Made by a program: the position numbers and the translations under genes. This document shows, piece by piece, positions 13,017-29,940 of a stretch of DNA of 64,000 bases (its first letter is position 1; every line of letters starts with the position of its first letter). The DNA is from a virus. Where the stretch lies: IMG/VR virus record IMGVR_UViG_3300020057_000029, positions 32,001 through 96,000 of that record. The stretch is one strand, 5' to 3'. Under the pieces are notes generated by a model. That model ran no database searches and had not been told where the DNA came from. It was given only the letters and a program-made list of their open reading frames with translations.

Positions 13017-15698
13017 ATGGCAGTAAAAAGACGGGTATCTTGGATTAGCCAGCAAAGAGTTGATGTACCAGACATGCGAGCTCTGGAATCTGCTGCGTCC
13101 AATGATTTCGACGAGTTAGTCAAGGCATTGTTCACTGGCGAAGAAGAAGGCTACATACTACGTGGCTTTGAGCTTTCAATGGCTGGTGCTATTGGGGGTG
13201 CCTCTAGCGCCCTCCAAATGTTCGTTGCTGAAGCAGCTGTTCTCCACACCAGATCTAGCCAGTCTGGAGCCTATCTGGTGGTTCCTGCCGGAACTCCTCC
13301 TGAACCTCTGAATTCTGCGACCAACACTATTGTTGACGGCGCATTTGCTCCAAACGCGATCAATTATGTTGGTCTTGAGTATGAGCGTTTTATTGATGAC
13401 ACTACTTCTGCACAGGTGTATATCTGGAACCCTACTACCGACAGTGAAACTACAAAGGTAGCCCCTCGCGCTCAAATTCTTCGCTATCGCATTAAGATCA
13501 CTGCTTCAACCTGGGCCACAAATGTTTTGCCAATTTGCACTGTAACCACAGATGCTGGCAACAACGTAACGGATATAGGCGACTCACGTCGTGACTTTTT
13601 TCGTCTTGGTACGGCAGGCCGTTCTACCGCAAACCCCTTTTACGTTTATCCCTGGACCGCCCAATCCGAAGGCCGTGTAGAAAACCCTCCTTCCTCGAAT
13701 AGCAACGCTGTCAATCCATTCCATGGTGGTGACAAAATGCTTGGCACATTCAAGGACTGGATGGATGCCGTCATGTCTCAGATTCTTGAGATCAAAGGGA
13801 CCACCTATTGGTACTCCCTTGGCACCTCAGGATCTCTTGCTAGCTTGCGTCAGGATTTGGGTAACACCATTTCAACTGGCGCTGGTATTATTTCACACAG
13901 TGCAGACACCGCAGGCTTGATCAATTGGGATGAAGACATTCATTTCAAAGTGGTTGGTTCACGTCTTGATTACGTTCTTCTTGCTAACCCCTCCTCTATC
14001 GATATCACTCTGAATGACAACCAGGTTGCCTATGTGAATCTGGTGCGCGGCGTTCTTGTAACTCCAAACCTTATTTTTACAAACGGCTCTGCAATTATAA
14101 CTTCAGTTGGTAACGTTGCTTGGACTGCTCCTCTTGCTGCTGGCGACTGGGTAAAAGCTGGTGCGGATACGGATGCTGGCTACTACAAAATCCAAACCGT
14201 AGATTCCCTTTCTCAAATAACCCTGACCGAAAACTTTGGCGGAACTTCTACGGGTGCAGCTGGTGCAAAAGCAAAATACGCTTTTGGCTCATATTCTACT
14301 TCCCCAGCCCCTTCTACTGGTCGTCACATTTTTATCGCAGACCGCGAAGACGTTCCAGAAGGTGAAAATATCTTTTGGTTCCTGCTTCGCGCAGATAACG
14401 GTGGCGTAATACCTAAAGTGTATGTTCGCTTTATTGGCTCCGAGCTAGAACTGGGCGAATCTGAAGAAATCGACGACGGAGTGTCCAGACAGCTCCTTCA
14501 GTATATCGGATCACCTTTAGAATCTGCAAGCAAGCCACAGTATGCCTCTGCACTCAATCCAGGTTCGTTACCAGAGAAGACTACGATTACAACTGGCGAT
14601 GCTACCACGATGGTGTCCAACCAGTATTTTTTCATCAACTCTTCTGCTGACTCTCGCAGATACGCTGTATGGGTGAACAAGGATGGGACCGGTGTTCAGC
14701 CAAATGCCCCATTCGTAAATGCATATGTTGAATGGATTATCAGCACTGGTCAGACTGCTACGCAAACGGCCCAGGCCCTTGCCACTGTTCTTGCTTCAAC
14801 CGATGATGAAGATTTTACTACTGTAGCGGGTATCGCGCAAGTATTGGTAACCAACAAATCTGCTGGTACATGTGCCGATGCTGTAAATTTTAACGTTGGC
14901 GCTCCTTTTGCTGTAACCGTAACACAACAGGGTACTGGTTCAGGCAATTTTGCTATCAATGATGGTGACAGTTTAACCCTTGCTATTAAGAAACTTGACG
15001 AAGCCATTCGCGAAATTTCTTCTCTTCTTGATGAGCCTGGTTATTGCGAATACGTTGACATAGTTGCTTCTGGCGGCGTTCCACCTGCTTCTATCGACGT
15101 TCCTGTTATTTCAGGCGATCTAATTCAATTGCCAGACAATAGTCGTCTTGGCAATTTACCTCAAAAATACACAGTAGGACAAGGCGTTTTAGAACTAGAC
15201 CTAAATGGAATTGAACTCGCCTATGGACGAGATTTTAATGAAGTTGGAGCAGCTGGTACCGCAAGTGACCAAATTGAAATTCTCAGAAGCCTTTTTGCCG
15301 GTGACAGTCTAGGGTTTAAAATTCTAGTCCAAGGTGGCCCAGGCGGCGGCGGCGGCGTAGGCGTACAAGGCCCTCCTGGACCAATGGGCGTACCTGGCAA
15401 TGATGCTATCGGCGGTCCTATTGCTATCAGCACTAAGATTGTTGACTACACAGTGATGACCAGTGACAACATGTTGCGAGCAGACGCTTCTAGTGGAACT
15501 GTAACTTTTAGTCTTCCTCCGGCTGCATCAGCAGTTGGAAATGTGTTCTTTTTAAAGAAAGTAGACGCTTCTGCAAATCCTATGATCGTTGAAGCAGATG
15601 GATCAGAGCTTATCGATGGCTTCAATACTCAACAAACCACAGTTCAATACGAATCTTTCACCATTGTCTCAAACGGCACTGGGTGGGATATTTTCTAA
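13017..15698 (+). CDS. Tail fibre/baseplate-attached structural protein (893 aa)
   Basis: Gly/Thr-rich beta modules, short collagen-like GVQGPPGPMGVPG, C-terminal TVTFSLPPAASAVGNVFFLKKVD...IDG domain typical of phage fibres. Confidence 0.7.
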   Translation: MAVKRRVSWISQQRVDVPDMRALESAASNDFDELVKALFTGEEEGYILRGFELSMAGAIGGASSALQMFVAEAAVLHTRSSQSGAYLVVPAGTPPEPLNSATNTIVDGAFAPNAINYVGLEYERFIDDTTSAQVYIWNPTTDSETTKVAPRAQILRYRIKITASTWATNVLPICTVTTDAGNNVTDIGDSRRDFFRLGTAGRSTANPFYVYPWTAQSEGRVENPPSSNSNAVNPFHGGDKMLGTFKDWMDAVMSQILEIKGTTYWYSLGTSGSLASLRQDLGNTISTGAGIISHSADTAGLINWDEDIHFKVVGSRLDYVLLANPSSIDITLNDNQVAYVNLVRGVLVTPNLIFTNGSAIITSVGNVAWTAPLAAGDWVKAGADTDAGYYKIQTVDSLSQITLTENFGGTSTGAAGAKAKYAFGSYSTSPAPSTGRHIFIADREDVPEGENIFWFLLRADNGGVIPKVYVRFIGSELELGESEEIDDGVSRQLLQYIGSPLESASKPQYASALNPGSLPEKTTITTGDATTMVSNQYFFINSSADSRRYAVWVNKDGTGVQPNAPFVNAYVEWIISTGQTATQTAQALATVLASTDDEDFTTVAGIAQVLVTNKSAGTCADAVNFNVGAPFAVTVTQQGTGSGNFAINDGDSLTLAIKKLDEAIREISSLLDEPGYCEYVDIVASGGVPPASIDVPVISGDLIQLPDNSRLGNLPQKYTVGQGVLELDLNGIELAYGRDFNEVGAAGTASDQIEILRSLFAGDSLGFKILVQGGPGGGGGVGVQGPPGPMGVPGNDAIGGPIAISTKIVDYTVMTSDNMLRADASSGTVTFSLPPAASAVGNVFFLKKVDASANPMIVEADGSELIDGFNTQQTTVQYESFTIVSNGTGWDIF

Positions 15699-16218: not shown

Positions 16219-18267
16219 ATGGCAGATATCGTAAAACTTCTAGAGCTTTCTTCTGGAATAGCTACTGGATTGGATATAACGGCAAACACTGGTGTTTGGC
16301 TGTCCATCAAGGTGGGCGGTGGAGTATCCAATACTGAACTAACCAAAACTATTTTGGACAGGCTTGTTTCCTTACAAGATGGAACTGATGTTGCTGCTGC
16401 TTATCACACTCACGATAGCAGGTACTTTACAGAAACCGAGCTTGGATCTGCAGTTGGTACTTCCGGCGCACAGCTAATTGGGGTCAAGGCCACTCCGGTC
16501 AATTACACACCTGGTTCTGCTGATGTTGAGGCCCACTTGGCAGGTATCGACAGCGCTTTAGCCTCTGCTGGCGGGAATGATTTTCTTGATTCTGTTTTTC
16601 GTATTTCGGACAATGCTGATCCTACTAAGAAAATTGCCTTTGAAAGTTCTGGTATTTCTACTTCTACGGTTCGTACAATTACGATGCCAGACGCAAACGT
16701 TGATCTTGGCAAGATAGCATCTGCTTTACAAAAAGACGGCTCTGTAACAGTTACTGCCGATCTGCCAATGGGCGGATTTAAGCTTACTGGAATGGCTGCC
16801 GGTTCTGCTGCTGGACACTCAGTTCGCTATGAACAATCGATTCTTGTTTCGGGCGCAAACGCTTTTACTGCTGCCCAGTCCATGGGTGGGTTTAATCTGA
16901 CCAGCGTGGCAGACCCCACAGCGCCTCAACATGCCGCTACAAAGGCTTACGTAGATGCTGTAGCCCAAGGTCTTCGTCCTAAACAGGCCGTGCGCGTTGC
17001 TTCTTTGGCAGATATAGCTCTTGCCAGTGCGCTAGAAAACGGCGATACTGTTGACGGTATCACTCTTGTCACAGGCGACCGCGTATTGGTTAAAAACCAA
17101 ACTCTGCCTGAAGAAAATGGTATTTATATTGTACAAGCTTCTGGCGCAGCTGTTCGTGCGCCAGACATGGACTCGCTTACGCCTATAGATGAGATTAACG
17201 GAGCCTACACCTTTATTCAATCTGGTACGCAAGCAGGTCAGGGCTGGGTTGAGCAAAGCAATGTAGCTGTTTTAGATACTGACCCAATGGTTTGGGTATA
17301 TTTCAATTCTGCTGCTGCTATTATCGGTGGCGATATGGTCACCGTAACTGGTCAGACCATTTCTCTCGATCTTGCCACTGCAAGCGGTCTTGAATCTAGT
17401 AACCCAAGCAACTCAGCTGGTCAGTTACGTATCAAACTTGAAGCTTCTAACCCAAGCTTAAAATTCTCTGGTTCTAATGAGCTTGGCCTCAAAATGGATG
17501 CAGCTGGAGCTCTTGCTTCAGGCGCTTCCGGCGCGGCTGTACAGGTTGATGGCTCAACGATTGAGATTAGCTCTAACGCCCTTCGCGTAAAAGACGCTGG
17601 TATCACCTTGGCCAAAATGGCTTCTAATTCTGTAGATGAGAATAAAATCGCAGCATCAGCTTTTAACGCAGCTGGCGCGATCACAGGTGGCGGCGCATCT
17701 AAGCTTGCTGTACAGGTTGATGGTTCTACCTTAGAAATTAGCGCAAACGCTCTTCGTCAAAAAGACGCTGGAACTACTGCTGCAAAACTCAATACAGACG
17801 TAGCAGACCAAACAACCATTGCTGGTGGTGCTGGTACTGCTCTTAACGTCCTTGCCGCTCCTTTGGTTTCAAGAACTCTAGTTGCCGGTGAAGCTTTTGC
17901 TGCAGATGTTTCCTTTTCAGTTCGATGGGCTTTAACTGGTGAAACTGCTGGAAGAGTATATAAAGCCGACAAAGACGCTTCGGCATCTGCTAAATACATG
18001 GGTATCGGTATCGGTCGTTCAGTAGCAGGCGTATCAGCTGGTGGAAATATTCAGGTGATCATGTTGGGAACCTCTGCTCTTGGTGCTAACGATTCTGCTT
18101 TTGCCGCTGGCGATGTAGGAAAAGAGTTATATGTAGGCACAACTGGAGCTTTCATCTTAGGCTCTGCCTTGGCTGATACTACAAATGAGGCCGCTTTCTG
18201 TATCGGAACGATTCAGTCAACATCTTCAATTTGGGTAGATTTCAAGCAGCTTAGAGGTATCAACTAA
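16219..18267 (+). CDS. Head/tail fibre protein
   Basis: AATKAYVD, KQAVRVAS, GDRVLVKNQT..ENGIY motifs; two VQVDGST(I/L)EIS.NALR.KDAG repeats; C-terminal cement-like domain. Confidence 0.75.
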   Translation: MADIVKLLELSSGIATGLDITANTGVWLSIKVGGGVSNTELTKTILDRLVSLQDGTDVAAAYHTHDSRYFTETELGSAVGTSGAQLIGVKATPVNYTPGSADVEAHLAGIDSALASAGGNDFLDSVFRISDNADPTKKIAFESSGISTSTVRTITMPDANVDLGKIASALQKDGSVTVTADLPMGGFKLTGMAAGSAAGHSVRYEQSILVSGANAFTAAQSMGGFNLTSVADPTAPQHAATKAYVDAVAQGLRPKQAVRVASLADIALASALENGDTVDGITLVTGDRVLVKNQTLPEENGIYIVQASGAAVRAPDMDSLTPIDEINGAYTFIQSGTQAGQGWVEQSNVAVLDTDPMVWVYFNSAAAIIGGDMVTVTGQTISLDLATASGLESSNPSNSAGQLRIKLEASNPSLKFSGSNELGLKMDAAGALASGASGAAVQVDGSTIEISSNALRVKDAGITLAKMASNSVDENKIAASAFNAAGAITGGGASKLAVQVDGSTLEISANALRQKDAGTTAAKLNTDVADQTTIAGGAGTALNVLAAPLVSRTLVAGEAFAADVSFSVRWALTGETAGRVYKADKDASASAKYMGIGIGRSVAGVSAGGNIQVIMLGTSALGANDSAFAAGDVGKELYVGTTGAFILGSALADTTNEAAFCIGTIQSTSSIWVDFKQLRGIN

Positions 18268-18309: not shown

Positions 18310-18609
18310 ATGGCAAAAGTAACCCGCTTAATTAAAGGACAGCTTAAATCGGTCAGTGTTGACCAGGAAGTTTCCATTGTTGATGCTACGTCTTTTGTTG
18401 TCGTAAATTTTCCTGCTACGCTACAAACCGCAAACGCAAACCCTAGAGTTGTTGCCTGGATGGTAAACACTGTTGATTCTAATCCACAATTTCAAGACGT
18501 TTTGATCACGGTCAGGTCTGCTACTGCCTTTACGGCCACTTGGAACGCTCCAGTTGATAGTTCTAACTACAAACTGGCCTATATCGTACTTGACGGATTT
18601 ATCACTTAA
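18310..18609 (+). CDS. Small structural protein (single beta-sandwich module)
   Basis: NPQFQ..IT....FT..WN.P.DS.NY module, also present twice in the next gene. Confidence 0.65.
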   Translation: MAKVTRLIKGQLKSVSVDQEVSIVDATSFVVVNFPATLQTANANPRVVAWMVNTVDSNPQFQDVLITVRSATAFTATWNAPVDSSNYKLAYIVLDGFIT

Positions 18610-18618
18610 GGAACGTAG

Positions 18619-19671
18619 ATGCAAAGAAATCCTTTCGCAAACCAGACTATATCGAGAGACTTGCTCCAGCAAATCTTTCCGTACCTATCTGGCCAGCAGC
18701 TAGACACTCTGCTTAAGTCTATAGACAAGGACTTGCAGGCACCCTTACGCGTTGATGCAAGCTCTACGCCCGATCTTGTTGTTACCATTGGTCCTGCCAT
18801 TGTAAACAACACAATCTCTGGTCGTCAGAAATCTATTCCGCATATCCAAAACGCAATTCCAGCTTTTACGTCTGGTACGATTACTTTCCCTAGTCTAAAT
18901 GGCGGAAACATCACCGTTTCTCCTGGCTCAAACACAACTCTAACCTGCCCACCAAACGAATACATCAAAGTCCTCATTTCTCTGGATTCCTCTGGTGATT
19001 TGATTGTTACTCAAGGTGTTTCTGACTTAGCTGAGGCAAACGCAATTGTTCCAGCCCCTGTTGCCAACACCTTGCCTGTGGCTTATATCAGTCTTTTTAA
19101 TAATGCTGGTATAGTTCAGAGTGTTGTTCAGAACAAGATTTTCCAGTTCGGTGGCGGCGGTGGCGGTGGCTCAGGATCGATTCAGGCAGGTTTTGCTCAA
19201 GAAATCGCTATACCAGATGCTGTCCAAAGTGTTGCGGTCAACTTTCCAAGCGCTCTACCTGGCACTAATTATGTAATTCAGGCTCAGTTTGTCAACATCA
19301 CTGATATTAACCCTCAGTTTCAAGATATTATTATTACTAATAAAACTATCAATGGTTTCACTGCAAATTGGAATGCGCCTACAGATTCAGCAAACTATCT
19401 CTTATCGTACATTGTACCTGTTGTCCAGGAGCACACTGGCGAGAAAGAAATTCCAGATACTGCAGATACTTTAGTGATTTCACTACCTTATACGTATGCT
19501 GGAACAAACTATACAATTGTGGCTACTATGGTCAATATAATTGATCCTAATCCACAATTTCAGGCAGTAATCGTAACTGCCAAGACCAACCTAACCTTTA
19601 CAGTATCATGGAATAGTCCAGTGGATTCCGCGAATTATAGACTCGGATTTCACGTCGCTCAATTCCAGTAA
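18619..19671 (+). CDS. Structural protein with two C-terminal repeats of the NPQFQ/WNAP module
   Basis: Poly-Gly linker followed by two copies of the module. Confidence 0.7.
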   Translation: MQRNPFANQTISRDLLQQIFPYLSGQQLDTLLKSIDKDLQAPLRVDASSTPDLVVTIGPAIVNNTISGRQKSIPHIQNAIPAFTSGTITFPSLNGGNITVSPGSNTTLTCPPNEYIKVLISLDSSGDLIVTQGVSDLAEANAIVPAPVANTLPVAYISLFNNAGIVQSVVQNKIFQFGGGGGGGSGSIQAGFAQEIAIPDAVQSVAVNFPSALPGTNYVIQAQFVNITDINPQFQDIIITNKTINGFTANWNAPTDSANYLLSYIVPVVQEHTGEKEIPDTADTLVISLPYTYAGTNYTIVATMVNIIDPNPQFQAVIVTAKTNLTFTVSWNSPVDSANYRLGFHVAQFQ

Positions 19672-19719: not shown

Positions 19720-22155
19720 ATGGCCTATAGGAAACAAGGTGCGTTAGTTGAAAGAGTGAACACCACTAATACAAGTGGCGCTACACTAACGCTTGTTGCG
19801 TCTTCTGCGTCATATCAGAGATTTACCGGCACCACTACTCACATTGTAGTTCTACCTGTCGGAACCACCATTCCTATTGGTGGCAAGTTCGCCGTCCTCA
19901 ACCGCTCCACTGGCATTGTTACTGTAAACTACAACGGTGGATCTCTAGCCGCCACTGTAAATGGTGACTCTCAGACTATCTTTCGCTGCACTGACAACTC
20001 AACCGCTGCTGGAGCTTGGGATGCTACGGTTGAGTCAAGTGGGGGTGGTTCTGTCACCCTTACTTCTCTTGAAAAACTTGGAGCATTATCAGCTCTTGCT
20101 GGTTCTTTTTACCAAGACTCTCAAACTGACGCGGTGACGTTGCAGATAAACCCCGAAGAAATCGGTGGAAATTTTTGGACTACGAAAACTCCTCTGTCTT
20201 CTGTCCGCAGATACACCGGGTCATTCACTCTGGGCGGCTTTATTTACTCCTTGGGTGGAGAGAATCCTGTTTCTACAAAAGTTACTACTGTTGAGCGTTA
20301 TAATGATGACTCTAATGCTGTTTTGGCAAGAACTGCTCTGACCACTGCCACGACTCAGGTTGGTGGATTTGCACTGACCCTTGGATATGCTTCTGGCGGA
20401 TTCCAAGCATCTCAAACCGCTGTCGTTCAAGCTTATGACGATGTGCTGGACTCATGGTCTGCAAAAGCCGCTCTACCAGCTACTAGAGCATCGTACACTC
20501 CAGCAGTGCTTGATGGGTATGGGATTTTATCTGGTGGAGACCTTTCTGGCTCTCCTACTGCCACATCTTTAATTTACGACTCTGTTGCTAATGTTTGGTA
20601 TTCAAGAGCTGATCGCCCCATCTCCAGAAGAGAAACTTTAGGCTTCGCTTCTCCAAATAAATATTATTCTATCGGCGGAGAAACTGCTGCTACGAATCTT
20701 GGTTACGCTTTTTCTTCTGTTTCCAATTCTTGGGTATCTATTGCAAATCATCCTGCCACAACTATTCAAAATGGCCCAGCTACGTTCGCCAGCGGAACCG
20801 GATACTCGATGGGTGGTCAAGGGCCAGCGTACAGCGCTGTAAACTACCGCTACAATGTAGACGCCAACTTGTGGAATACAATGTCTCCAAAACCCACTGG
20901 AGCGCATTCTAATTTAACCTCTGGTGCCTCACTTAATGGTGTAGCCTATGTGCTAGGCGGCGAGACCACCGGCGTAACCCTCATCTCCTCAATTGAGAGC
21001 TACACCCCTTTCTCCTTCTTAGCTGTCCCTCTCTCCAAGAAATCCACCTCCGCTCCAACTAGCATCTTTGTTGCCGCTGCGCTTAGTGGAGTAGTGACCA
21101 GTGTGCCAGTGAGAATCCGCACCGATGGTACAAATTGGAAGAACCTTACTGCCAACGCAGATTCAGTTTTAAAGCAGGGCGAGACTTTTGCTAAGTTTGC
21201 CGCGAATGGAAGTGGATATTACAACTACGAACTCCAGATCGGCTTGCCCACTTACTTGGCCGCTACTGGTGGTGGTCAGTGGGTAACTAAAGCAAATTTA
21301 TCTTTTGTGTCTCAACACAGTTGTTCATTTACTGTTGGGACACAAGTCTATGGGGCCTACGGGCTTGATGTTGGTGGGCGTCACAAGAAGACTCAAAGAT
21401 TTGATACTTTGCTAAATGCTTCAGTACGAGAGACTGACGGAAACCTAAGTGAAGCGTATACTGGTGGGCTAACCTCCTCGTCCACTCTTTACGGCAGAGG
21501 ATTCACTAATGGCCACAATGGTGCTGTTTTGCTTGACGGCGGTACTATGCTCTACGATACCATTCTCAAAGCGTGGACTACGGTGGCTACTGGTGGTGGC
21601 TCCGGGCAATTAAACGGAAACTTGGTGCTTAATGGTTTTGCGTATTCTGCTTCTGGTGGTCCAACAGTCCCGGCACATCAATTATCTACATATCGCTACA
21701 CCCTTTCCACGAATTCATGGAGTTCGAACATAGCCACGCTGAACAACATTCACTACGGCGGAATGATGTCGGCTCTTAATGGATTTGGTTACATGGTTGG
21801 TGGGACCAGTACAATAAACGAGAGGTTTAATGACGCTTCTGGAAGTTGGCTTACCATGGCCGCCACGGCAGCGAACGTGGAATCAGCTAGCAGTTTTGTA
21901 ATAGAAGATGGTTGGCATATTGCAGCTCCGTACAGCGGGGGTAATTCTACTATTCATTATCTCTTTAAGGACGGAATAAATGCGTGGATTAGTAAGACTG
22001 CATATCCAATATCAGCCTACGGGCCTGTTGGTGGGTCAGTAGGTAATAGCGGATATTCCATGGGGGGCAACAATGGAGCTTATCTCTCCAACGTGTACCA
22101 GTGGGCTTCAGCAATTCAAAACGTAGTCTTGGGCGCAGCCTTGAGGATTAGCTAA
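19720..22155 (+). CDS. Kelch-repeat adhesin/fibre protein 1 (2 six-bladed propellers)
   Basis: About 12 Kelch repeats (GG...Y...W spacing). N-terminal domain shared with the next two genes. Confidence 0.85.
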   Translation: MAYRKQGALVERVNTTNTSGATLTLVASSASYQRFTGTTTHIVVLPVGTTIPIGGKFAVLNRSTGIVTVNYNGGSLAATVNGDSQTIFRCTDNSTAAGAWDATVESSGGGSVTLTSLEKLGALSALAGSFYQDSQTDAVTLQINPEEIGGNFWTTKTPLSSVRRYTGSFTLGGFIYSLGGENPVSTKVTTVERYNDDSNAVLARTALTTATTQVGGFALTLGYASGGFQASQTAVVQAYDDVLDSWSAKAALPATRASYTPAVLDGYGILSGGDLSGSPTATSLIYDSVANVWYSRADRPISRRETLGFASPNKYYSIGGETAATNLGYAFSSVSNSWVSIANHPATTIQNGPATFASGTGYSMGGQGPAYSAVNYRYNVDANLWNTMSPKPTGAHSNLTSGASLNGVAYVLGGETTGVTLISSIESYTPFSFLAVPLSKKSTSAPTSIFVAAALSGVVTSVPVRIRTDGTNWKNLTANADSVLKQGETFAKFAANGSGYYNYELQIGLPTYLAATGGGQWVTKANLSFVSQHSCSFTVGTQVYGAYGLDVGGRHKKTQRFDTLLNASVRETDGNLSEAYTGGLTSSSTLYGRGFTNGHNGAVLLDGGTMLYDTILKAWTTVATGGGSGQLNGNLVLNGFAYSASGGPTVPAHQLSTYRYTLSTNSWSSNIATLNNIHYGGMMSALNGFGYMVGGTSTINERFNDASGSWLTMAATAANVESASSFVIEDGWHIAAPYSGGNSTIHYLFKDGINAWISKTAYPISAYGPVGGSVGNSGYSMGGNNGAYLSNVYQWASAIQNVVLGAALRIS
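20149..20186 (+). repeat. 38-bp exact direct repeat, copy 1 (copy 2 at 25819-25856)
   Basis: AACCCCGAAGAAATCGGTGGAAATTTTTGGACTACGAA is identical in Kelch genes 1 and 3; diverged copy at ~22584-22621. Confidence 0.95.
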
Positions 22156-25100
22156 TGAGCACTTATTATAAACTTGGAAGTTTGGTCGAGGGATTAACCT
22201 CCACCGCCACGGCGGCGGGGACCACAACGCTCACGGCCTCAAGCAGACCCATTCAGCAGTTCACCGGAACTACCACGCAGACTGTGGTGCTTCCTGATGC
22301 TACTACTTTAAGCATCGGCAGACGTTTCGATATCAACAATCGCTCCACCGGAGCAATCACCGTCAATGCTAATGGTGGGGGAGCCGTTGGGGTTGTAGCC
22401 GCCGGAACCCAGCGATATTTCTTGGTGAGCGACATTTCTTTAGCTGCCGGTGTGTGGCGCGTTGGTGGCGTAACTGGCTCTGGTGGTGGTGGTGTAACGG
22501 ATGCCGATAAGCTGAAACTGCTCCAAGGCATGGCTGGGCTAAATCTCCAGACCGACAACATCGTGGCGAAGGTTATCAAGACTAATCCCGAAGAGGTGGG
22601 TGGAAATTTTTGGATTACCAAGAGTCCTGGCACTCCTATCGGGTATGGTGGTTTTTTCTCAGCTAGTGGTTTTTATTACCAATCAACGGGACTTAATTCG
22701 GCCTCTGTTGAAACTGGAATCACCAGTAGATATTCTGATGATGATAATTACTGGCTGGCCAGGACTTCTGCTCCATCAGCAAGGTACGGCGCTATATGTT
22801 TTTCGCTGACCGATAATTATGTTGTGGGTGGAAATAACGTAAATCCCGTTACATCCAATCAATCATTTAATGTTTTAACAAATGCCTGGACTTCTAATTT
22901 GGCGCTTCCTGTGGCCACAGATTTCGGCGGCGGATTTGCCTTGAATGGTTATGGATTCATAGTTGGCGGAAGAACCACGAACTCTCTCATTGGCGTAAAC
23001 GCAGTTTATCAATACGATTCCGTTTTGAATAGCTGGACGCTGCGCTCGCCAACTTTAGCTACGGCTTCGCAAAGAAGCTATACTCAAACAGCTGACTTGG
23101 GTGGGTTTGGTTATTCTGTTGGAGGTTCTGACGCTGGGAACACGACCAACACCTCCATCGTGAACGTATACGACATAGCCACGAATTCTTGGTCAACGGC
23201 TCCAAGTATGATCACCACTCGCTCTTTCTTTGGAATTAGTAATAATGTGGTTGGCTCTATCATGGCTTTTGCTGGCTCTGTCCCTAGCAATAGCAATCTG
23301 TCTGAGCAGTTTTTTGATACTACGAAAACCTGGAAGGCCACCGCAACGCTTGGCACTGCAAAGAACTCCGTGGCAGGTGGATCTTTGAATGGCTCAGCCA
23401 TGTGTGTCGGCTCCTCAGTCTTTGCGGCCGTTGTTGAGTCTTTCATTCCCGCATCGTTCTTCAACCTTGGCTCCGTAAAAGTCTCCACTACTGCTCCGAC
23501 CAGCATCCTCGCTGCGGTATTGATGAGCGACTTGGCTTATTCCGTTCCCGTTCAGATTCGTACTGATGGCGACAGTTGGAAGACCTTTACGTCTGGTGGA
23601 AGCGTACTAAAGACTGGCGAAACACTATCTGCAAAATTCCAGCATTCTCCGGCTTCTGGAATGGTAGTTGGCGGCGCATCCACCACGTCTGAATCTTACG
23701 GAAAAAGCCAGAACGCATGGACCACTAGAGCCTCAATCCCCGCCAATCGTGGCCAATACTACGGGTTTTCTCTTAACGACAGACTTTATATAGTGGGTGG
23801 AACTGGCGGTGTGAGTTCCGGTCTCAGGTTTGACGAAATCAAAAATACATTTACTACCCTGTCTTCTTCTCTGTTGTCCGGTAAAATGAATGGAGCTGGC
23901 GCTCTCCTCAACGGCTTCGGGTATGTCACTGGTGGCGCTGCCACCAGCACAACTACGGGATTTACTGCACACGATCGCTATAATGACACCCTAGATTCCT
24001 GGTTGGCCAGAACCGGACTTACTGCGGGCAAAACGTATGTAGGCGGGACTGCTGCTGAAGGTAGAATTTTTGTTTACACTGGCTATTCGACTGGGACAAG
24101 AACCAGCAGCGGAGAAGGATACTCCGATTCTACCGACAGCTGGAGCGCAATTGCAGCTTACGGGCTTGGTATTATTGCTGAAATGCCCACCATGTCTATC
24201 GGCGGCTATGCCTATGGTTGTGGGGGGTATAACGGCTCTAACGTGTCCAGCGTATACCGCTACACACCGTCAACCAATATTTGGGCCGCGAGGACCAACC
24301 TAAATACGGCTAAATATTCCGCTGTAACATTCGTTCTCGAAGGCTTTGGGTATGTGGCAAACGGCTTCGTCGCCGGAAATTCAAACGCACTCGAAGAGCA
24401 CAACCCAGACGCCAATACCTGGACAAATAGACAAACCTCCACGTTCTCCAAGTCAGAGCTTTCTTATTCGCAAACACATACCACCCCCTACCGTAACTAC
24501 GAAATGCGCGTTGGCATCCCAGCGTTCTATGCTGGAGTGGGCGGTGGAGTGTGGGTAACGAAAACGACGAACCCATCGAACAATACTTTTAGCGCAGCCG
24601 GAACTTCTGGTTCAACGGTGTTCCTGAGCTGTTCCGCTTCTTCGGCCTCGTATGCTTATGACTACCTCTCAGATTCCTATGTGAGAATCCAGGACTACCC
24701 ACAATCCCCGCAAGGGCAGCAGAACTGCTCTATATCCACAACGGTGGGGGATATTATTTACTCCACTGGCGGACCTACAGCGTCGGCGGCTCCAGTATTC
24801 GCACTGTCTCCCTACACTCGCGTGTACACCACGCTTGCGAATATGCCGGTGTACACCAACTCCGGATGCTTTTCTGCCCTCAATGGAATGATGTACTATA
24901 TCGGCGGAAACCCTGGAGGACTGGGAGCTTCGACCCGTACACAGAAATATAACCCAACAACGAATGCGTGGACAGATCATGGCAACCTCTTGCCATCGTC
25001 TGGCGTCTACAATATTGGTGGTGCCTATAATGGATTCATTTACGTCACTGGCGGGAACAATTCCACCAACAACTACCAGTTCAATGACGCATCCGTGGCT

Positions 25101-25406
25101 TTCACATCTAAGACTGGCCCCACCGCTTCTGTAGCTCTTGGACTTGCCGCCGTTGTAAACGGAGAATACTTCACGTCAATGGGCTTCGGACCACTTACCG
25201 CTGCGTCACAATCCTACCGGGATTCTGCAAACGTGTGGGCCACTAAAACTTCTGCGCCGAGTGCTTTCCAAGACACCCAAGGTGGGACGGTCGGTGATAC
25301 CGCATTCTTCTCCGGTGGATACAATGCCGGTGGCTTCGGAACTAGCCACGCCTATGTCTCTTCAATCAAGCAAGCAGTGCTCGGCATCGCTTTAGAGGTG
25401 AAATAA
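22155..25406 (+). CDS. Kelch-repeat adhesin/fibre protein 2 (3 propellers)
   Basis: About 18 Kelch repeats in three blocks separated by conserved scaffold segments. Confidence 0.85.
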   Translation: MSTYYKLGSLVEGLTSTATAAGTTTLTASSRPIQQFTGTTTQTVVLPDATTLSIGRRFDINNRSTGAITVNANGGGAVGVVAAGTQRYFLVSDISLAAGVWRVGGVTGSGGGGVTDADKLKLLQGMAGLNLQTDNIVAKVIKTNPEEVGGNFWITKSPGTPIGYGGFFSASGFYYQSTGLNSASVETGITSRYSDDDNYWLARTSAPSARYGAICFSLTDNYVVGGNNVNPVTSNQSFNVLTNAWTSNLALPVATDFGGGFALNGYGFIVGGRTTNSLIGVNAVYQYDSVLNSWTLRSPTLATASQRSYTQTADLGGFGYSVGGSDAGNTTNTSIVNVYDIATNSWSTAPSMITTRSFFGISNNVVGSIMAFAGSVPSNSNLSEQFFDTTKTWKATATLGTAKNSVAGGSLNGSAMCVGSSVFAAVVESFIPASFFNLGSVKVSTTAPTSILAAVLMSDLAYSVPVQIRTDGDSWKTFTSGGSVLKTGETLSAKFQHSPASGMVVGGASTTSESYGKSQNAWTTRASIPANRGQYYGFSLNDRLYIVGGTGGVSSGLRFDEIKNTFTTLSSSLLSGKMNGAGALLNGFGYVTGGAATSTTTGFTAHDRYNDTLDSWLARTGLTAGKTYVGGTAAEGRIFVYTGYSTGTRTSSGEGYSDSTDSWSAIAAYGLGIIAEMPTMSIGGYAYGCGGYNGSNVSSVYRYTPSTNIWAARTNLNTAKYSAVTFVLEGFGYVANGFVAGNSNALEEHNPDANTWTNRQTSTFSKSELSYSQTHTTPYRNYEMRVGIPAFYAGVGGGVWVTKTTNPSNNTFSAAGTSGSTVFLSCSASSASYAYDYLSDSYVRIQDYPQSPQGQQNCSISTTVGDIIYSTGGPTASAAPVFALSPYTRVYTTLANMPVYTNSGCFSALNGMMYYIGGNPGGLGASTRTQKYNPTTNAWTDHGNLLPSSGVYNIGGAYNGFIYVTGGNNSTNNYQFNDASVAFTSKTGPTASVALGLAAVVNGEYFTSMGFGPLTAASQSYRDSANVWATKTSAPSAFQDTQGGTVGDTAFFSGGYNAGGFGTSHAYVSSIKQAVLGIALEVK

Positions 25407-25407
25407 T

Positions 25408-28400
25408 ATGTTTTTCAAGCAAGGCGCACTAGTAGAGCGGAGTTTGGTAACTGCCACCAGCGCAGGGACTTTGACTCTGATCAACACCTCTGAGACATAC
25501 CAAATCTTCACAGGGTCAACCACGCACACACTGAAGCTGCCAGACTCCACGACGATGCCTAATGGTCGACGCTTCGAGGTAGTCAACGCTTCCACTGGTG
25601 ATATTACTGTTCAAGATTCAACGGCGGCTGTGATCGGCACCTTGACCACTGGGATTTCTAAAATCTTTCGCCTTGCTGACAACTCCACTGCTGCTGGTAC
25701 GTTTGATATTACTGCGGCATCTTCTGGTGGTGCTGCTGCATTGTCCACTCAGGAAAGTAGTCAGTTTAATGCTCTCACAGCGAAAGGTTTCAGCCCAACT
25801 TCGGTAGTTTTGAAATACAACCCCGAAGAAATCGGTGGAAATTTTTGGACTACGAAGGCTCCTGTTTCCGTTGCCAAGGCGTGGCCCTCCAACTTTACTT
25901 TGAATGGATTTGTTTACAACGCTTTTGGTATAACAAATGCCCCCACCAACGCGACAACCAACGAGCGGTACGACACAGACTTAAACTATTTCTTAAGTAG
26001 AGCCTCCGGAATCACTGCCTGTAATACCAGGGCTCCATTCGTTCTTTCTGGGATTGCGTATGTGGTCAACGGTGACCCCAGCATCAACGCCGTTGAAAGA
26101 TACGATGACGTTCTCAATTCGTGGTCTGCTCGCACAGCGATTGGAACCGCCTTTTATGGTGCCGCGTCCTGGTCTCTTGGTTCTCTAGGCTACATTGCCG
26201 GTGGCCAAGGAAGCGGGACCACGACTTCCGCTTATGAAGCGGTGGCGAACGTATGGTCTGCCAGGGCTGCTGTCCCAGTTTCTACCACCAGGGTTTGCCA
26301 AGGCGGGTCAGAACACAATGGCTTTGGTCATATTGTCAGTGGGACTTCTGTAACCACGGTTCGCAGATACGACCCAGCATTAAATTCGTACTCTTCCTTG
26401 GCTTCCTCTACCGTTGGCCACGCCCACGGTGGAGTGGCGTCTGTGAGTGGGGTCCTTTTGGCCTCTGGTGGGGAAAATACGAGTAGCGTACATATCACCA
26501 CTGTCGAAAAATTTTATGATGGTGCTGGCGCATGGGTCACTGTTGCTCCTATTTCTCAGGCGAGAAATGGGTGTGGCGCTGTTTCCGGTGGCCTATTTAT
26601 GTCCATCAGTGGTGGTGTTGGGACTGGCGTAGCATACACGCCGGTCGAGGCATACACTTCTAATTCATTATTTACGACCGCTATCTCTTTACGATCAACC
26701 ACTACCCCTACTGCAATTTCCGCTTCAGTGATCATGAATGGCCTTACGCAGTCCGTTCCTGTTCAGATTCGTACTGATGGAGACAACTGGAAGACTATAA
26801 TGTCGAACGGTGGCAGTGCGCTGAAGACTGGTGAGACCCTCACTGCTAAGTTCCAGCACTCTCCCTCAGCGGGACTTGTTGGTGGAGCAAATGGGCTTTC
26901 CTCAAACGAATCTTTTAATGATATACAGAATTTATGGACACTTAGAACATCCTTGTCTGCTGTAAAAACTGGTGGGGCTGGCTTCACTATTGATGGCACC
27001 TCTTACATCGCTGCTGGTGAGAATGGCGCAGCAGATGCATTCACCAACGAACAATACAAGGACCTAGAGAATACCATCACCGCTAGAACTGCAATTCCAA
27101 ATACCACTGCTCTCGGTGCCAGTTTTGGCCTCAATGGATTTGGATATGCTGTGTGTGGTCGTATTAGGTCAACTCTGGCAGTCCAAACATTAAATCAGCA
27201 GTTCAACCCAGCAGCGAACTCATGGACGAATAGAGCCGCTGCCACAACGTCTTCCAGAGTATTTTTGCCAGGCACCGATCTTCAAGGATTTGGATTTATT
27301 TTCAGCGGCTACACCAATGCTACTGGTGGAGGTGGCTCAGTTATTACCTCTTCTGAAAGATATAGTGATACCACCAATGCGTGGAATACAATCTCATCAG
27401 TTGGCAGAGAGAACCACACTGCGTTTGCTCTAAACGGATTCGCATATTTCACACAAGGCGATAGCGCTCCAACTGGCGAAAATAACACTTATAAATATGA
27501 CCCAACCGCTAGCTCTTTTAGCTTAATGTCCGGTGGTCTGAACACAGCGCGTCCTAGTAGCCCTGGTTCATTTAGATTAAACGGGTACGCCTATATAACG
27601 GGTGGTTCAGGTAATACTTCCGAGAGATTCAATGTTGAGGCGAACACCTACACAAACATGGCCAACATGAACTCCTCCAGGCAGCAAATGGCCTCTCCTA
27701 ATAATGGTCCAGGTGCTTACCGTAACTACGAAATGCGCGTCGGCATTCCTGCCTACTACGCTGGAGTGGGCAATTGGGTAACGGTAACTAGAATCGCAGT
27801 CCCCGTTTCTGCTTATGGATTTGGCTTTGTACTAAGTGACCGGTCTTACCAACCTGTAGGCAATAACAACCTTTGGTATGAGCAAAACACCACTCTTAAT
27901 TCATGGGCAGCTATCGCCAACAGCACTTATTCTGCTCAGTTCAAGGCGACTTTTTCTCTGCTTGGCTTCGGATACGCAGCCGGTGGCAACACTGGACTGA
28001 CCTCGACAAGTCAATACAACCCATCGTCTGCGGTGTGGGCTTCTACTGGAACACTAAATAATTCTGTTGGATACGCGGCAGGAGCCACGCTAAACGGCTC
28101 AGGGTATTTGCTCGGTGGCCATAATGGTGGGTTGACTACCTTCATTCAGAAGTACAATCCATCATTGGGAACGTGGGCATCTGCGGGCAGCTTGAACAGC
28201 GCAAAATACAGTCTCGATGGTGATTCTTGTGCCGGGTTTATATACCTGGGTGGCAATTCAAGCTTGGCTTTTGAGCGATACAATGACGTGACCCAAACAA
28301 CCACCTTAATGGCCACTGTATTGGTGGCTGACGACACAGATGGAATGGCTGGGTGTAAGGGCGATAAGTTTTACTACTTGGGTGGGTCGGCTGGGTCACC

Positions 28401-28596
28401 GAGGGTTTCCGAATACAGCACCCAGGGGAATTTCTGGACCATTAAACCATCCATCACCAACCGCTATTATATCGCTGGTGGCAACATTGGCGGAAATTTC
28501 TACCTATCTGGCGGAAACACCGGTCTCACAACAAATGAAGCCTACGTGGATTCACTAAAACAAGCGGTCCTGTCCGCAGGGCTGAACATCTCTTAA
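25408..28596 (+). CDS. Kelch-repeat adhesin/fibre protein 3 (3 propellers)
   Basis: Same architecture as protein 2. Confidence 0.85.
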   Translation: MFFKQGALVERSLVTATSAGTLTLINTSETYQIFTGSTTHTLKLPDSTTMPNGRRFEVVNASTGDITVQDSTAAVIGTLTTGISKIFRLADNSTAAGTFDITAASSGGAAALSTQESSQFNALTAKGFSPTSVVLKYNPEEIGGNFWTTKAPVSVAKAWPSNFTLNGFVYNAFGITNAPTNATTNERYDTDLNYFLSRASGITACNTRAPFVLSGIAYVVNGDPSINAVERYDDVLNSWSARTAIGTAFYGAASWSLGSLGYIAGGQGSGTTTSAYEAVANVWSARAAVPVSTTRVCQGGSEHNGFGHIVSGTSVTTVRRYDPALNSYSSLASSTVGHAHGGVASVSGVLLASGGENTSSVHITTVEKFYDGAGAWVTVAPISQARNGCGAVSGGLFMSISGGVGTGVAYTPVEAYTSNSLFTTAISLRSTTTPTAISASVIMNGLTQSVPVQIRTDGDNWKTIMSNGGSALKTGETLTAKFQHSPSAGLVGGANGLSSNESFNDIQNLWTLRTSLSAVKTGGAGFTIDGTSYIAAGENGAADAFTNEQYKDLENTITARTAIPNTTALGASFGLNGFGYAVCGRIRSTLAVQTLNQQFNPAANSWTNRAAATTSSRVFLPGTDLQGFGFIFSGYTNATGGGGSVITSSERYSDTTNAWNTISSVGRENHTAFALNGFAYFTQGDSAPTGENNTYKYDPTASSFSLMSGGLNTARPSSPGSFRLNGYAYITGGSGNTSERFNVEANTYTNMANMNSSRQQMASPNNGPGAYRNYEMRVGIPAYYAGVGNWVTVTRIAVPVSAYGFGFVLSDRSYQPVGNNNLWYEQNTTLNSWAAIANSTYSAQFKATFSLLGFGYAAGGNTGLTSTSQYNPSSAVWASTGTLNNSVGYAAGATLNGSGYLLGGHNGGLTTFIQKYNPSLGTWASAGSLNSAKYSLDGDSCAGFIYLGGNSSLAFERYNDVTQTTTLMATVLVADDTDGMAGCKGDKFYYLGGSAGSPRVSEYSTQGNFWTIKPSITNRYYIAGGNIGGNFYLSGGNTGLTTNEAYVDSLKQAVLSAGLNIS
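25819..25856 (+). repeat. 38-bp exact direct repeat, copy 2
   Basis: Identical to 20149-20186. Confidence 0.95.
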
Positions 28597-29014: not shown

Positions 29015-29884
29015 ATGTCAATTAGAGTAGAAGTTGTTGAAAATACCGTGCAAAAGTCCTACCAAGAGATCATTGAAGCAGATCAAGATCAAAACAAATC
29101 TAGAGCCCAAGATCTAGCGATCCTACCAACTGAAGCCAGAAAGAATATCGTAGAAGCTACAAAATATTCTAGCTACTTCCCAAACCCAATCACCTCGGAA
29201 TTTATGGAGAAATATATTTTAGCTCCAATCGAATTTCCTACTGTCGGATCGGGTTTGGCCCAAAGCTTGACTGAATTGAACGTAAGAATCGACAACCTAT
29301 TCAATGACGCTTACACGTCAGAGAAAACCAAGCTAGAAGCAGAAGACTTAGAGCTTCAGATTGAAGAGATCATGGTGAGCGAGATAACTTCTTCTGCTCG
29401 TGTATTGGTAGAAGAAGGTTGCGTTACAATGTCTGACACTAAAAACCTTTCCGGTCACGACCGTCGCGGAATTAACAAGATCAAACTTTTGCGTCTAGAA
29501 CATACTAACAAAAAACATTCTCTCAAGAAGATCGAGTTGGCAGCAATGGCTCGTTACAACGAAGCTATGGGCTGGAAGACTCTGGTTGAGAAGAAGATGG
29601 CTGAGATGAAGGTCAAAGATCTCTCAGAGGTTGACTTCAACAGTATTCGTATGGATGAAATGCACGCCAAGATCAAAAAATGGGGCGAACTGCACGCTCA
29701 AGGCGCTTTGGAGCTCACTCCTTCTAAGTTTAATGCTATCGATTCCAACCAAGGCGCTTTCGTAGAAGGTATTCAGGAAGGCGAAGGCAGGAAGCAAATG
29801 GCTCAACTTGCCAATCAAGAGGCTCAAAAACAGCTTCAATCTGCGCAGGGCGTAGCCTCTCCACAGTCTCGCAGACCGCAATAG
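29015..29884 (+). CDS. Coiled-coil hypothetical protein
   Basis: 289 aa, helical and charged, AGGAG RBS, last gene of the + arm. Confidence 0.75.
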   Translation: MSIRVEVVENTVQKSYQEIIEADQDQNKSRAQDLAILPTEARKNIVEATKYSSYFPNPITSEFMEKYILAPIEFPTVGSGLAQSLTELNVRIDNLFNDAYTSEKTKLEAEDLELQIEEIMVSEITSSARVLVEEGCVTMSDTKNLSGHDRRGINKIKLLRLEHTNKKHSLKKIELAAMARYNEAMGWKTLVEKKMAEMKVKDLSEVDFNSIRMDEMHAKIKKWGELHAQGALELTPSKFNAIDSNQGAFVEGIQEGEGRKQMAQLANQEAQKQLQSAQGVASPQSRRPQ

Positions 29885-29905: not shown

Positions 29906-29940
29906 AATAAGGCTGGCAGAAATGCTGGCCTTATTTTTTT
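29906..29940 (+). terminator. Rho-independent terminator at the end of the + arm
   Basis: AATAAGGCTGGCA-GAAA-TGCTGGCCTTATT stem-loop followed by a T run. Confidence 0.85.

Follow-up and report, generated by a model that had tools for sequence, protein, structure and literature searches.

Kelch propellers in and beside a predicted small beta domain: three tandem candidate receptor-binding proteins of an uncultured phage

Host recognition is the fastest-evolving and least predictable part of a phage, and it is usually explained by trimeric fibres or tailspikes whose tips are exchanged. How several different heads could instead be carried by one polypeptide is the question raised by a locus at positions 19720-28596 of a 64,000-nucleotide stretch of viral DNA (hereafter the window), which represents bases 32001-96000 of the 155,223-bp IMG/VR virus record IMGVR_UViG_3300020057_000029, estimated to be 96% complete. 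The locus holds three tandem paralogous genes, the sole copies in the record, whose products appear to offer a different solution, with several unrelated-looking propeller heads arranged around a small conserved core. Judging from sequence and structural modelling, we consider it probable, although far from secure, that they serve an uncultured 155-kb phage of contractile-tail type as distal tail-fibre or receptor-binding proteins, each made of a scaffold and two or three Kelch propellers.

The array consists of three plus-strand open reading frames (ORFs), given here with their modules: N is the shared N-terminal domain, K1 to K3 are the Kelch propellers by position, and S3 to S5 are short conserved segments (aa, amino acids; HMM, hidden Markov model).

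19720..22155, + strand: gene 1 (P0001), 811 aa, with N, K1, S3, a six-residue loop, S4, K3 and S5 (ORF, translation and HMM map)
22155..25406, + strand: gene 2 (P0002), 1083 aa, with N, K1, S3, K2, S4, K3 and S5
25408..28596, + strand: gene 3 (P0003), 1062 aa, with N, K1 (residues 138-418), S3 (419-486), K2 (487-770), S4 (771-786), K3 (787-1049) and S5 (1050-1062)

Conserved segments, divergent propellers and the predicted scaffold

An initial annotation, made from the letters alone, had described three tandem paralogs with a common N-terminal domain and conserved segments separated by Kelch blocks, and this observation is confirmed by the ORFs, their translations and the alignment. Indeed, all the motifs that it quoted are present at the places given: NPEE(I/V)GGNFW at residues ~138-153, S.T.PT.I...VPV.IRTDG..WK...LK.GET..AKF at residues ~440-493, Y.NYE...G.P at residues 500, 779 and 771 of genes 1, 2 and 3, respectively, and the VL...L.(I/V) strand at the end of all three paralogs. 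Gene 1 was said to carry a loop of about six residues at the point that a whole propeller occupies in genes 2 and 3, and the coordinates agree, since AKF-AANGSG-YYNYE occupies residues 491-504 (window 21190-21231) and ~280 aa stand at the same point in the two other genes. The modules that carry the argument are located as follows.

19723-20031, 22155-22466 and 25408-25716, + strand: N domains of genes 1, 2 and 3; in gene 1 a ~100-aa beta domain (HMM N:2-104)
20149..21009, + strand: gene 1 K1, starting at the NPEEIGGNFW closing strand (full-length match to the K1 HMM, 146-430)
21010..21267, + strand: gene 1 S3, AANGSG and S4, contiguous, with the middle socket empty
21268..22104, + strand: gene 1 C-terminal propeller, equivalent to the K3 position of genes 2 and 3 (K3 HMM match, 530-786)
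22105..22152, + strand: gene 1 S5 (..NVVLGAALRIS), which includes the ribosome-binding site (RBS) of gene 2
23451..23651, + strand: gene 2 S3 (HMM S3:433-499)
23652..24479, + strand: gene 2 K2, between S3 and S4
24480..24539, + strand: gene 2 S4 (YRNYEMRVGIPAFYAG), from the HMM
25356..25403, + strand: gene 2 S5 (..AVLGIALEVK), from the HMM
26662..26865, + strand: gene 3 S3, modelled with strands 419-430, 437-443, 451-455 and 462-465 and helix 478-481
26866..27717, + strand: gene 3 K2, the middle propeller, closed in the model by its C-terminal strand
27718..27765, + strand: gene 3 S4, modelled as a long strand, 772-781
28555..28593, + strand: gene 3 S5, modelled as a strand, 1054-1061

The conserved and the variable parts are clearly separated among the paralogs, with identities of 44-50% in N, 45-66% in S3, 35-79% in S4 and 38-50% in S5, against 17-35% for any pair among the eight propellers, and the same contrast is found in a profile of 66 family members. 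The count of 2+3+3 highly divergent Kelch blocks made in the initial annotation therefore holds at the level of what is encoded, as judged from Pfam, the family HMMs and the gene 3 model as well as from these identities. The Pfam Kelch_1 scores are 20.9, 60.0 and 29.6 bits for genes 1, 2 and 3 (cut-off 20.1), with an E-value of 1.5e-16 for gene 2; the score of gene 1 is marginal, yet the family K1 and K3 HMMs each match one of its two blocks from end to end. Note that MAFFT alignments of the paralogs misalign the C-terminal propeller of gene 1 to the middle propeller of the others, and that the correct correspondence is given by HMM mapping.

A full-length model was made for gene 3 only (AlphaFold2, with a family alignment of 66 sequences), and genes 1 and 2 were read by homology. 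The model (mean predicted local distance difference test, pLDDT, 82.7; predicted template modelling score, pTM, 0.60) contains three six-bladed propellers of 24 strands each, as determined by strand counting with DSSP. K1 is closed by an N-terminal strand, in which FWTTK (146-150) forms the outer strand of blade 6, K3 is closed by its own first strand (790-795), and K2 by its own last strand (763-767). The propellers are thus predicted to be six-bladed, Velcro-closed members of the Kelch clan (Pfam PF01344); for K2, Foldseek gave a TM value of 0.9 to designed Kelch and KLHL/Keap1 structures, and the best VIA match of the model range 486-770 had a Z of 40.6 and a root-mean-square deviation (rmsd) of 1.5 Å over 271 aligned residues. 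In gene 3, K2 (26866-27717) is a circular permutation of the arrangement seen in K1 and K3. Since K2 closes by a C-terminal strand and the outer two by N-terminal strands, the model suggests that K2 was acquired separately from them.

The same model corrects the initial annotation in one respect. NPEE..GGNFW had been counted as a non-Kelch scaffold segment, but NPEE..GGNFWTTK shows the Kelch pattern 'YNPxxNxW' and in the model supplies the strand by which blade 6 of propeller 1 is completed, so that it is better taken as the closing strand and boundary of that propeller; as a scaffold strand it was rejected from the gene 3 model. A weak resemblance of '..VTLQI-NPEE' to the '..YELQIG' of S4 was also considered, but this stretch has pLDDT below 60 and forms no strand.

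What, then, holds the propellers together? Beyond the 24-strand propellers, the gene 3 model contains long strands at 419-430 (S3), 772-781 (S4) and 1054-1061 (S5), each directly after a propeller, and the other elements of S3, namely three shorter strands and a short helix, also lie outside the propellers. The pLDDT of these segments in 10-residue blocks is 65-85 (67-85 in S3 and 65-74 in S5). Had the segments been unstructured linkers, the scaffold proposed initially would have had little to stand on; long beta strands were modelled instead. In addition, 91 residues of gene 1 (window 21004-21276), which comprise S3 and S4 without any propeller, were modelled with AlphaFold2 on a hand-checked alignment of 26 rows, and gave a compact beta domain (pLDDT 81.7, pTM 0.70) with a long first and a long last strand (3-14 and 73-82) and two inner ones (35-39 and 46-49). 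S3 and S4 are consequently predicted to form one domain, since the propeller-less fragment folds compactly and all its strands must pair within it.

S5 probably completes this domain. In the gene 3 model it is a 25th strand beyond a complete 24-strand K3, its conservation exceeds that of every propeller, and both faces of its VLGAALRVS pattern carry small or hydrophobic residues, as befits a buried strand; on these three grounds its membership of the S3/S4 domain is favoured. Mean-field direct coupling analysis on 78 concatenated S3/S4/S5 sequences returned gap artefacts only. The full-length pTM lends indirect support to one rigid body, as three independent bodies of ~280 aa would be expected to score below 0.60.

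The idea of a discontinuous scaffold with plugged-in propellers thus stands in part. It is supported for S3, S4 and K2 by the fold of the fragment and by homologs in which the two segments are contiguous; NPEE and K1 fall outside it, and propeller 1, which had been placed in a socket of the scaffold, was found N-terminal to it and not inserted.

Filled, empty and exchanged positions across the family

An exhaustive HMMER search recovered 157 proteins at E <= 1e-30, in a family that falls into some 80 clusters when grouped at 50% identity, nearly all from uncultured material. The whole plan N-K1-S3-K2-S4-K3-S5, ~1060-1120 aa long, was found in about 80 of the representatives listed. Of the 77 family proteins analysed, 73 have S3 and S4 separated by ~280 residues, the size of a propeller. 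P0004, P0006 and P0007 share the unsplit arrangement of gene 1, and so do, in a clean alignment, distant relatives of ~700 aa that are devoid of N (P0102, P0107, P0117, P0125, P0127, P0136 and P0163); the spacing in contiguous members, P0001 included, is 4-10 residues. With the two segments unsplit in gene 1 and ~15 relatives, K2 appears to be a true insertion between S3 and S4. This corresponds to what is expected of nested domain insertion, where the segments of the parent domain adjoin each other in some homologs and have a whole domain between them in others.

Larger fillings were found as well. In P0015 and P0018 the distance from S3 to S4 is ~450 residues, filled by a propeller and a further ~160 aa, and at the RTDG loop within S3 an insertion of ~190 residues is found in P0130, P0144 and P0165 and a GH130-like domain (PF04041, 1.1e-7) in P0168, which suggests that the scaffold hosts non-Kelch, carbohydrate-active folds too. 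After S5, a further propeller follows in P0081, P0096, P0098 and P0099, and a glycine-rich domain in P0032. From this series of filled, empty and over-filled relatives, the small S3/S4 domain is read as the constant element and the large domains as the variables.

Are the propellers also exchanged? Identities per module were calculated over the 77 family proteins, the sequences of the relatives coming from metagenome assemblies, and close relatives overall have scaffolds 95-100% identical with single propellers only 24-37% identical. As an example, P0001 and P0004 are 90-100% identical from residue ~100 to ~520 (K1 98.6%, S3 97%, and S5 100%) and differ in K3 (24%) and the N domain (60%), while P0001 and P0006 are 100% identical in N, S3, S4 and S5 with about 35% in K1 and about 25% in K3. 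P0004 and P0006 in turn have identical K3 propellers (100%) and K1 propellers at 36%, P0076 and P0164 are 99-100% identical throughout except in K1 (37%), and P0003 and P0026 agree in N (92%) and K3 (91%) and diverge in K1 and K2 (28% each). The best relative of the K3 of gene 1 is the K3 of a three-propeller protein, P0005, at 50%. Since the scaffolds are near-identical while single propellers differ, the propellers appear to be exchanged one position at a time, and in this evolutionary sense the plug-in propellers of the initial annotation are upheld at all three positions.

The best match of a propeller in another protein belongs to the same position class in 223 of 227 cases, which points to allelic replacement at a fixed socket and not to shuffling between sockets. 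Mosaic breakpoints fall at NPEE/GGNFW, K1|S3, S4|K3 and K3|S5, and the long DNA repeats between paralogs in the window occur only at these junctions: the NPEE repeat, 50 nt long, with 92% identity between genes 1 and 3, and the S4 repeat (family D1), 76 nt long, with 80% identity between genes 2 and 3.

Altogether, a mechanism can be proposed in which the N-terminal beta domain of ~100 aa would serve as attachment or shaft module, and S3 and S4, probably with the terminal S5, would form a small conserved discontinuous beta domain. K1 would precede this scaffold, K2 would be nested in the S3|S4 loop, which is empty in gene 1, and K3 between S4 and S5. A propeller could sit in such a loop and leave the host domain unbroken, because Velcro closure puts its two ends side by side. 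The conserved DNA coding for the scaffold would double as homology arms, by which related phages would replace K1, K2 or K3 singly with propellers of the same position class. We infer from the sequences that the proteins are located in the virion, where the propeller faces would bind host surface glycans and play a role in host range.

A bolder reading, which we hold as tentative and on balance doubtful, is that S3/S4/S5 constitute an undescribed small hub fold with several defined sockets for whole propellers and for other domains such as the GH130-like one, by which one, possibly non-trimeric, chain carries two or three independently evolving heads that are reassorted by recombination at the hub segments. 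If true, this would add a new architectural class to the phage receptor-binding proteins, and the hub fold would be a ready-made natural chassis for studying the modular evolution of host range. If the heads bind host glycans, the family would also amount to a natural experiment on combinatorial specificity in which the exact boundaries of the modules are mapped, among proteins that annotation pipelines now see only as 'Kelch repeat' hypotheticals.

Tail setting of the array and competing readings

The three genes are, as their junctions suggest, translationally coupled. The stop of gene 1 and the start of gene 2 overlap as TAATG (window 22143-22157), and the ATG of gene 3 lies two bases past the stop of gene 2, as TAA-T-ATG (window 25392-25410). 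Gene 1 is preceded by the RBS GGAGAG, and the RBS of gene 2 and that of gene 3 lie within the last codons, those of the conserved S5, of the preceding gene. Part of the DNA conservation of S5 may consequently serve translation signals.

Upstream on the same strand, baseplate PHROG families are matched by the ORFs at 23-1669 (phrog_975) and 1707-8252 (phrog_6), the latter coding for 2181 aa with a gp6-like wedge domain. Homologs of the genes at 13017-15698, 16219-18267 and 18619-19671 occur in three larger IMG/VR contigs (L021, L023 and L027), and directly after the homolog of the last one, a 350-aa gene, these contigs have an N domain joined to a C1q-like head, a type of head that is typically trimeric. 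In a fourth contig (L001) the whole tandem array recurs, followed by a homolog of the 289-aa gene found downstream of it here. Because syntenic relatives carry other heads on the N domain at this locus, N is probably an attachment or shaft module. The ~100-aa N domain is a widespread, mobile phage module, found in at least 346 IMG/VR stretches; its equivalent in the gene 3 model (residues 11-103) has pLDDT 79-94 in 10-residue blocks, with only a 12-residue helix (114-125) between it and K1, and the nearest structural neighbours of the domain include tail-fibre clusters. A conserved proximal part joined to an exchangeable distal specificity part and a location in the tail/baseplate module of the late operon are both expected of tail fibres, and both are found here as far as sequence and gene order indicate. 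A tail-fibre role is accordingly suggested by an array that follows baseplate genes and ends the operon, and by the C1q-like heads that replace Kelch in the relatives.

The immediate neighbours complete the picture as follows.

18619..19671, + strand: 350-aa gene with a weak fn3 match, which adjoins the N-domain fibre gene on its 5' side in related phages too
29015..29884, + strand: 289-aa gene, which follows the Kelch array in L001 as well
29906..29935, + strand: strong terminator-like hairpin (13-bp stem plus T run) that ends the plus-strand structural operon

The 350-aa protein matches Pfam fn3 at 2.4e-5 and 24.9 bits, slightly below the 25-bit cut-off, and has full-length homologs of 41-44% identity in L023 and L027. 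Its C-terminal part shares a domain with the 99-aa ORF at 18310-18609, and the same domain is found at the end of larger proteins encoded by L005, L021, L023 and L027; it could represent a further exchangeable distal module of this operon. The 682-aa protein at 16219-18267 matches tail-fibre and 'head decoration' PHROGs (phrog_30390, 2647 and 11518), and in a database relative, P0035, its PHROG-matching part is joined to an N domain. On the 3' side of the array come a 99-aa ORF, the 289-aa ORF and then the hairpin, at which the two arms of the genome converge. The 289-aa protein is charged and probably helical, gave no family in Pfam and PHROG searches, and is 58% identical to its L001 homolog (E 3e-105); it could be a fibre assembly or partner protein. 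On the minus strand, a DnaE-type polymerase of 1585 aa (47814-52574) has a long N-terminal extension. Its nearest relative among GenBank phages, in Myxococcus phage Mx1, is only 33% identical, which suggests that the lineage is poorly represented among cultured phages. When the locus and P0001/P0002 were compared with GenBank phages by megablast and tblastn (the latter at E 1e-3), in a collection that may lack records close to this genome, one weak Paenibacillus phage match was the only result, and a profile search of genome contigs gave a single N-domain match, on a contig of a Saccharibacteria metagenome-assembled genome, with no host clue and no sign of a prophage copy. PHROGs and Pfam gave no family for S3/S4 alone or the N domain alone, neither has a meaningful sequence match in the PDB, and an ESM Atlas look-up of S3/S4 produced weak leads only.

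Several of our results weigh against scaffolded tail-fibre proteins. The N domain is also found in the middle or at the C-terminus of other proteins and in tandem copies (3-6 in P0033, P0038, P0039, P0139 and P0149), so that its role as an anchor derives from synteny and is not a property of a domain that can be placed anywhere. The PHROG matches of the window proteins are confined to the Kelch repeats. The fold of S3+S4 has no significant relative (best Foldseek PDB E 0.96, VIA Z 3.8 and BFVD E 0.4; the best of the 48,161 VIA chains are generic sandwiches, carbohydrate-binding modules and capsid jelly rolls), so that the fragment fold is not cross-validated, and the missing match does not prove a new fold since the fragment was modelled without S5. 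Finally, S5 could pack on the edge of a propeller instead. It could thus be argued that the proteins are beads on a string, with no scaffold at all and with segments that are closing strands or linkers, conserved as recombination junctions or as contacts between propellers. The gene 3 model does show NPEE..GGNFW and GGGxWVTK as strands that close propellers, and the lack of any fold relative in Foldseek, VIA and BFVD suits this reading. We find it unlikely, as the 91-aa fragment folds without a propeller, the extra strands are 8-12 residues long and lie beyond 24-strand propellers, and the full-length pTM points the other way; moreover, the protein conservation of S3 (IRTDG.NWK and K.GET) reaches relatives that are ~30% identical overall, for which junction DNA alone is insufficient.

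The function of the propellers can also be read otherwise. Phages are known to carry beta-propeller depolymerases and endosialidases, and the array could code for virion-borne or secreted enzymes that depolymerise or modify carbohydrate of the host surface, with propellers that are catalytic or bind the substrate. For several Kelch relatives the source databases give the name N-acetylneuraminic acid mutarotase, and the GH130-like domain of P0168 sits in the S3 socket, but no enzyme family of Pfam or PHROG scores on the window proteins, no putative active-site motif is conserved beyond the Kelch GG, Y and W in propellers that diverge as far as those described above, and position-specific exchange of cassettes fits specificity modules, which makes an enzyme an improbable explanation. 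Decoration or whisker proteins of the head, tail surface or collar, or intracellular proteins outside the virion, would involve no receptor recognition, and this appears very unlikely: the array stands directly after baseplate genes, C1q-like fibre heads replace it in syntenic phages, Pfam finds no BTB or other intracellular partner domain, and tblastn finds no similarity to the Kelch proteins of GenBank phages, those of the jumbo phage CBB included. In its favour, phrog_16120 is classed with 'head and packaging' families as a structural protein of the virion, a 'head decoration' PHROG is matched by relatives of the nearby 682-aa gene, and CBB, which has tail whiskers, carries a Kelch protein in its virion at an unknown location (PMC5259590). 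Tail-fibre or receptor-binding proteins built on a scaffold remain for us the best explanation of the locus.

Comparison with known systems

A receptor-binding site on a beta-propeller has a precedent in the receptor-binding protein (RBP) of Brochothrix phage NF5, which is attached to the baseplate (PMC12917162). The RBPs of phi11, 80alpha and NF5, with their stem, platform and tower, have one five-bladed non-Kelch propeller per chain and a trimeric coiled-coil stem, in contrast to the two or three six-bladed Kelch propellers per chain that are predicted here, nested in or flanking a small beta domain. The array proteins would therefore work like phi11-type RBPs but are not members of that type, as they have six-bladed Kelch propellers and no long coiled coil. 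The Kelch proteins of jumbo phages, for instance CBB_550, CBB_552 and CBB_554 of vB_PcaM_CBB, are likewise phage-encoded six-bladed propellers, and mass spectrometry has found CBB_552 in virions (PMC5259590); neither the N domain, nor the S3/S4/S5 scaffold, nor multi-propeller nesting has been described for them. The cellular Kelch proteins (Keap1/KLHL and the designed SAKe6) also have the same fold (VIA Z 39-41, rmsd 1.4-1.7 Å over ~270 residues, 20-26% identity), but the phage proteins have no BTB/BACK domains, lie in a phage structural operon and are predicted to nest in a discontinuous host domain.

The endosialidase tailspike of the K1F type is a trimeric enzyme with a six-bladed propeller into which a small beta-barrel is inserted. 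The combination of a six-bladed propeller with domain insertion is common to both systems, but the topology is reversed, since propellers are here predicted to be inserted into a small beta domain, and no enzyme signature was seen. In branched multi-RBP systems such as TSP1-4 of CBA120 and those of G7C, multivalency comes from separate trimeric proteins docked together, unlike the array described here, in which two or three different heads are encoded per single chain and three such chains in tandem. Such systems likewise have several different receptor-binding heads per virion, encoded by adjacent genes, as in the hyperbranched fibres of phiKp24 (bioRxiv 10.1101/2022.03.15.484430). A non-exhaustive literature search found no published description of the nested multi-propeller architecture. 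Modular host recognition is already known in phages, and what this locus would add to it is the nested multi-propeller form.

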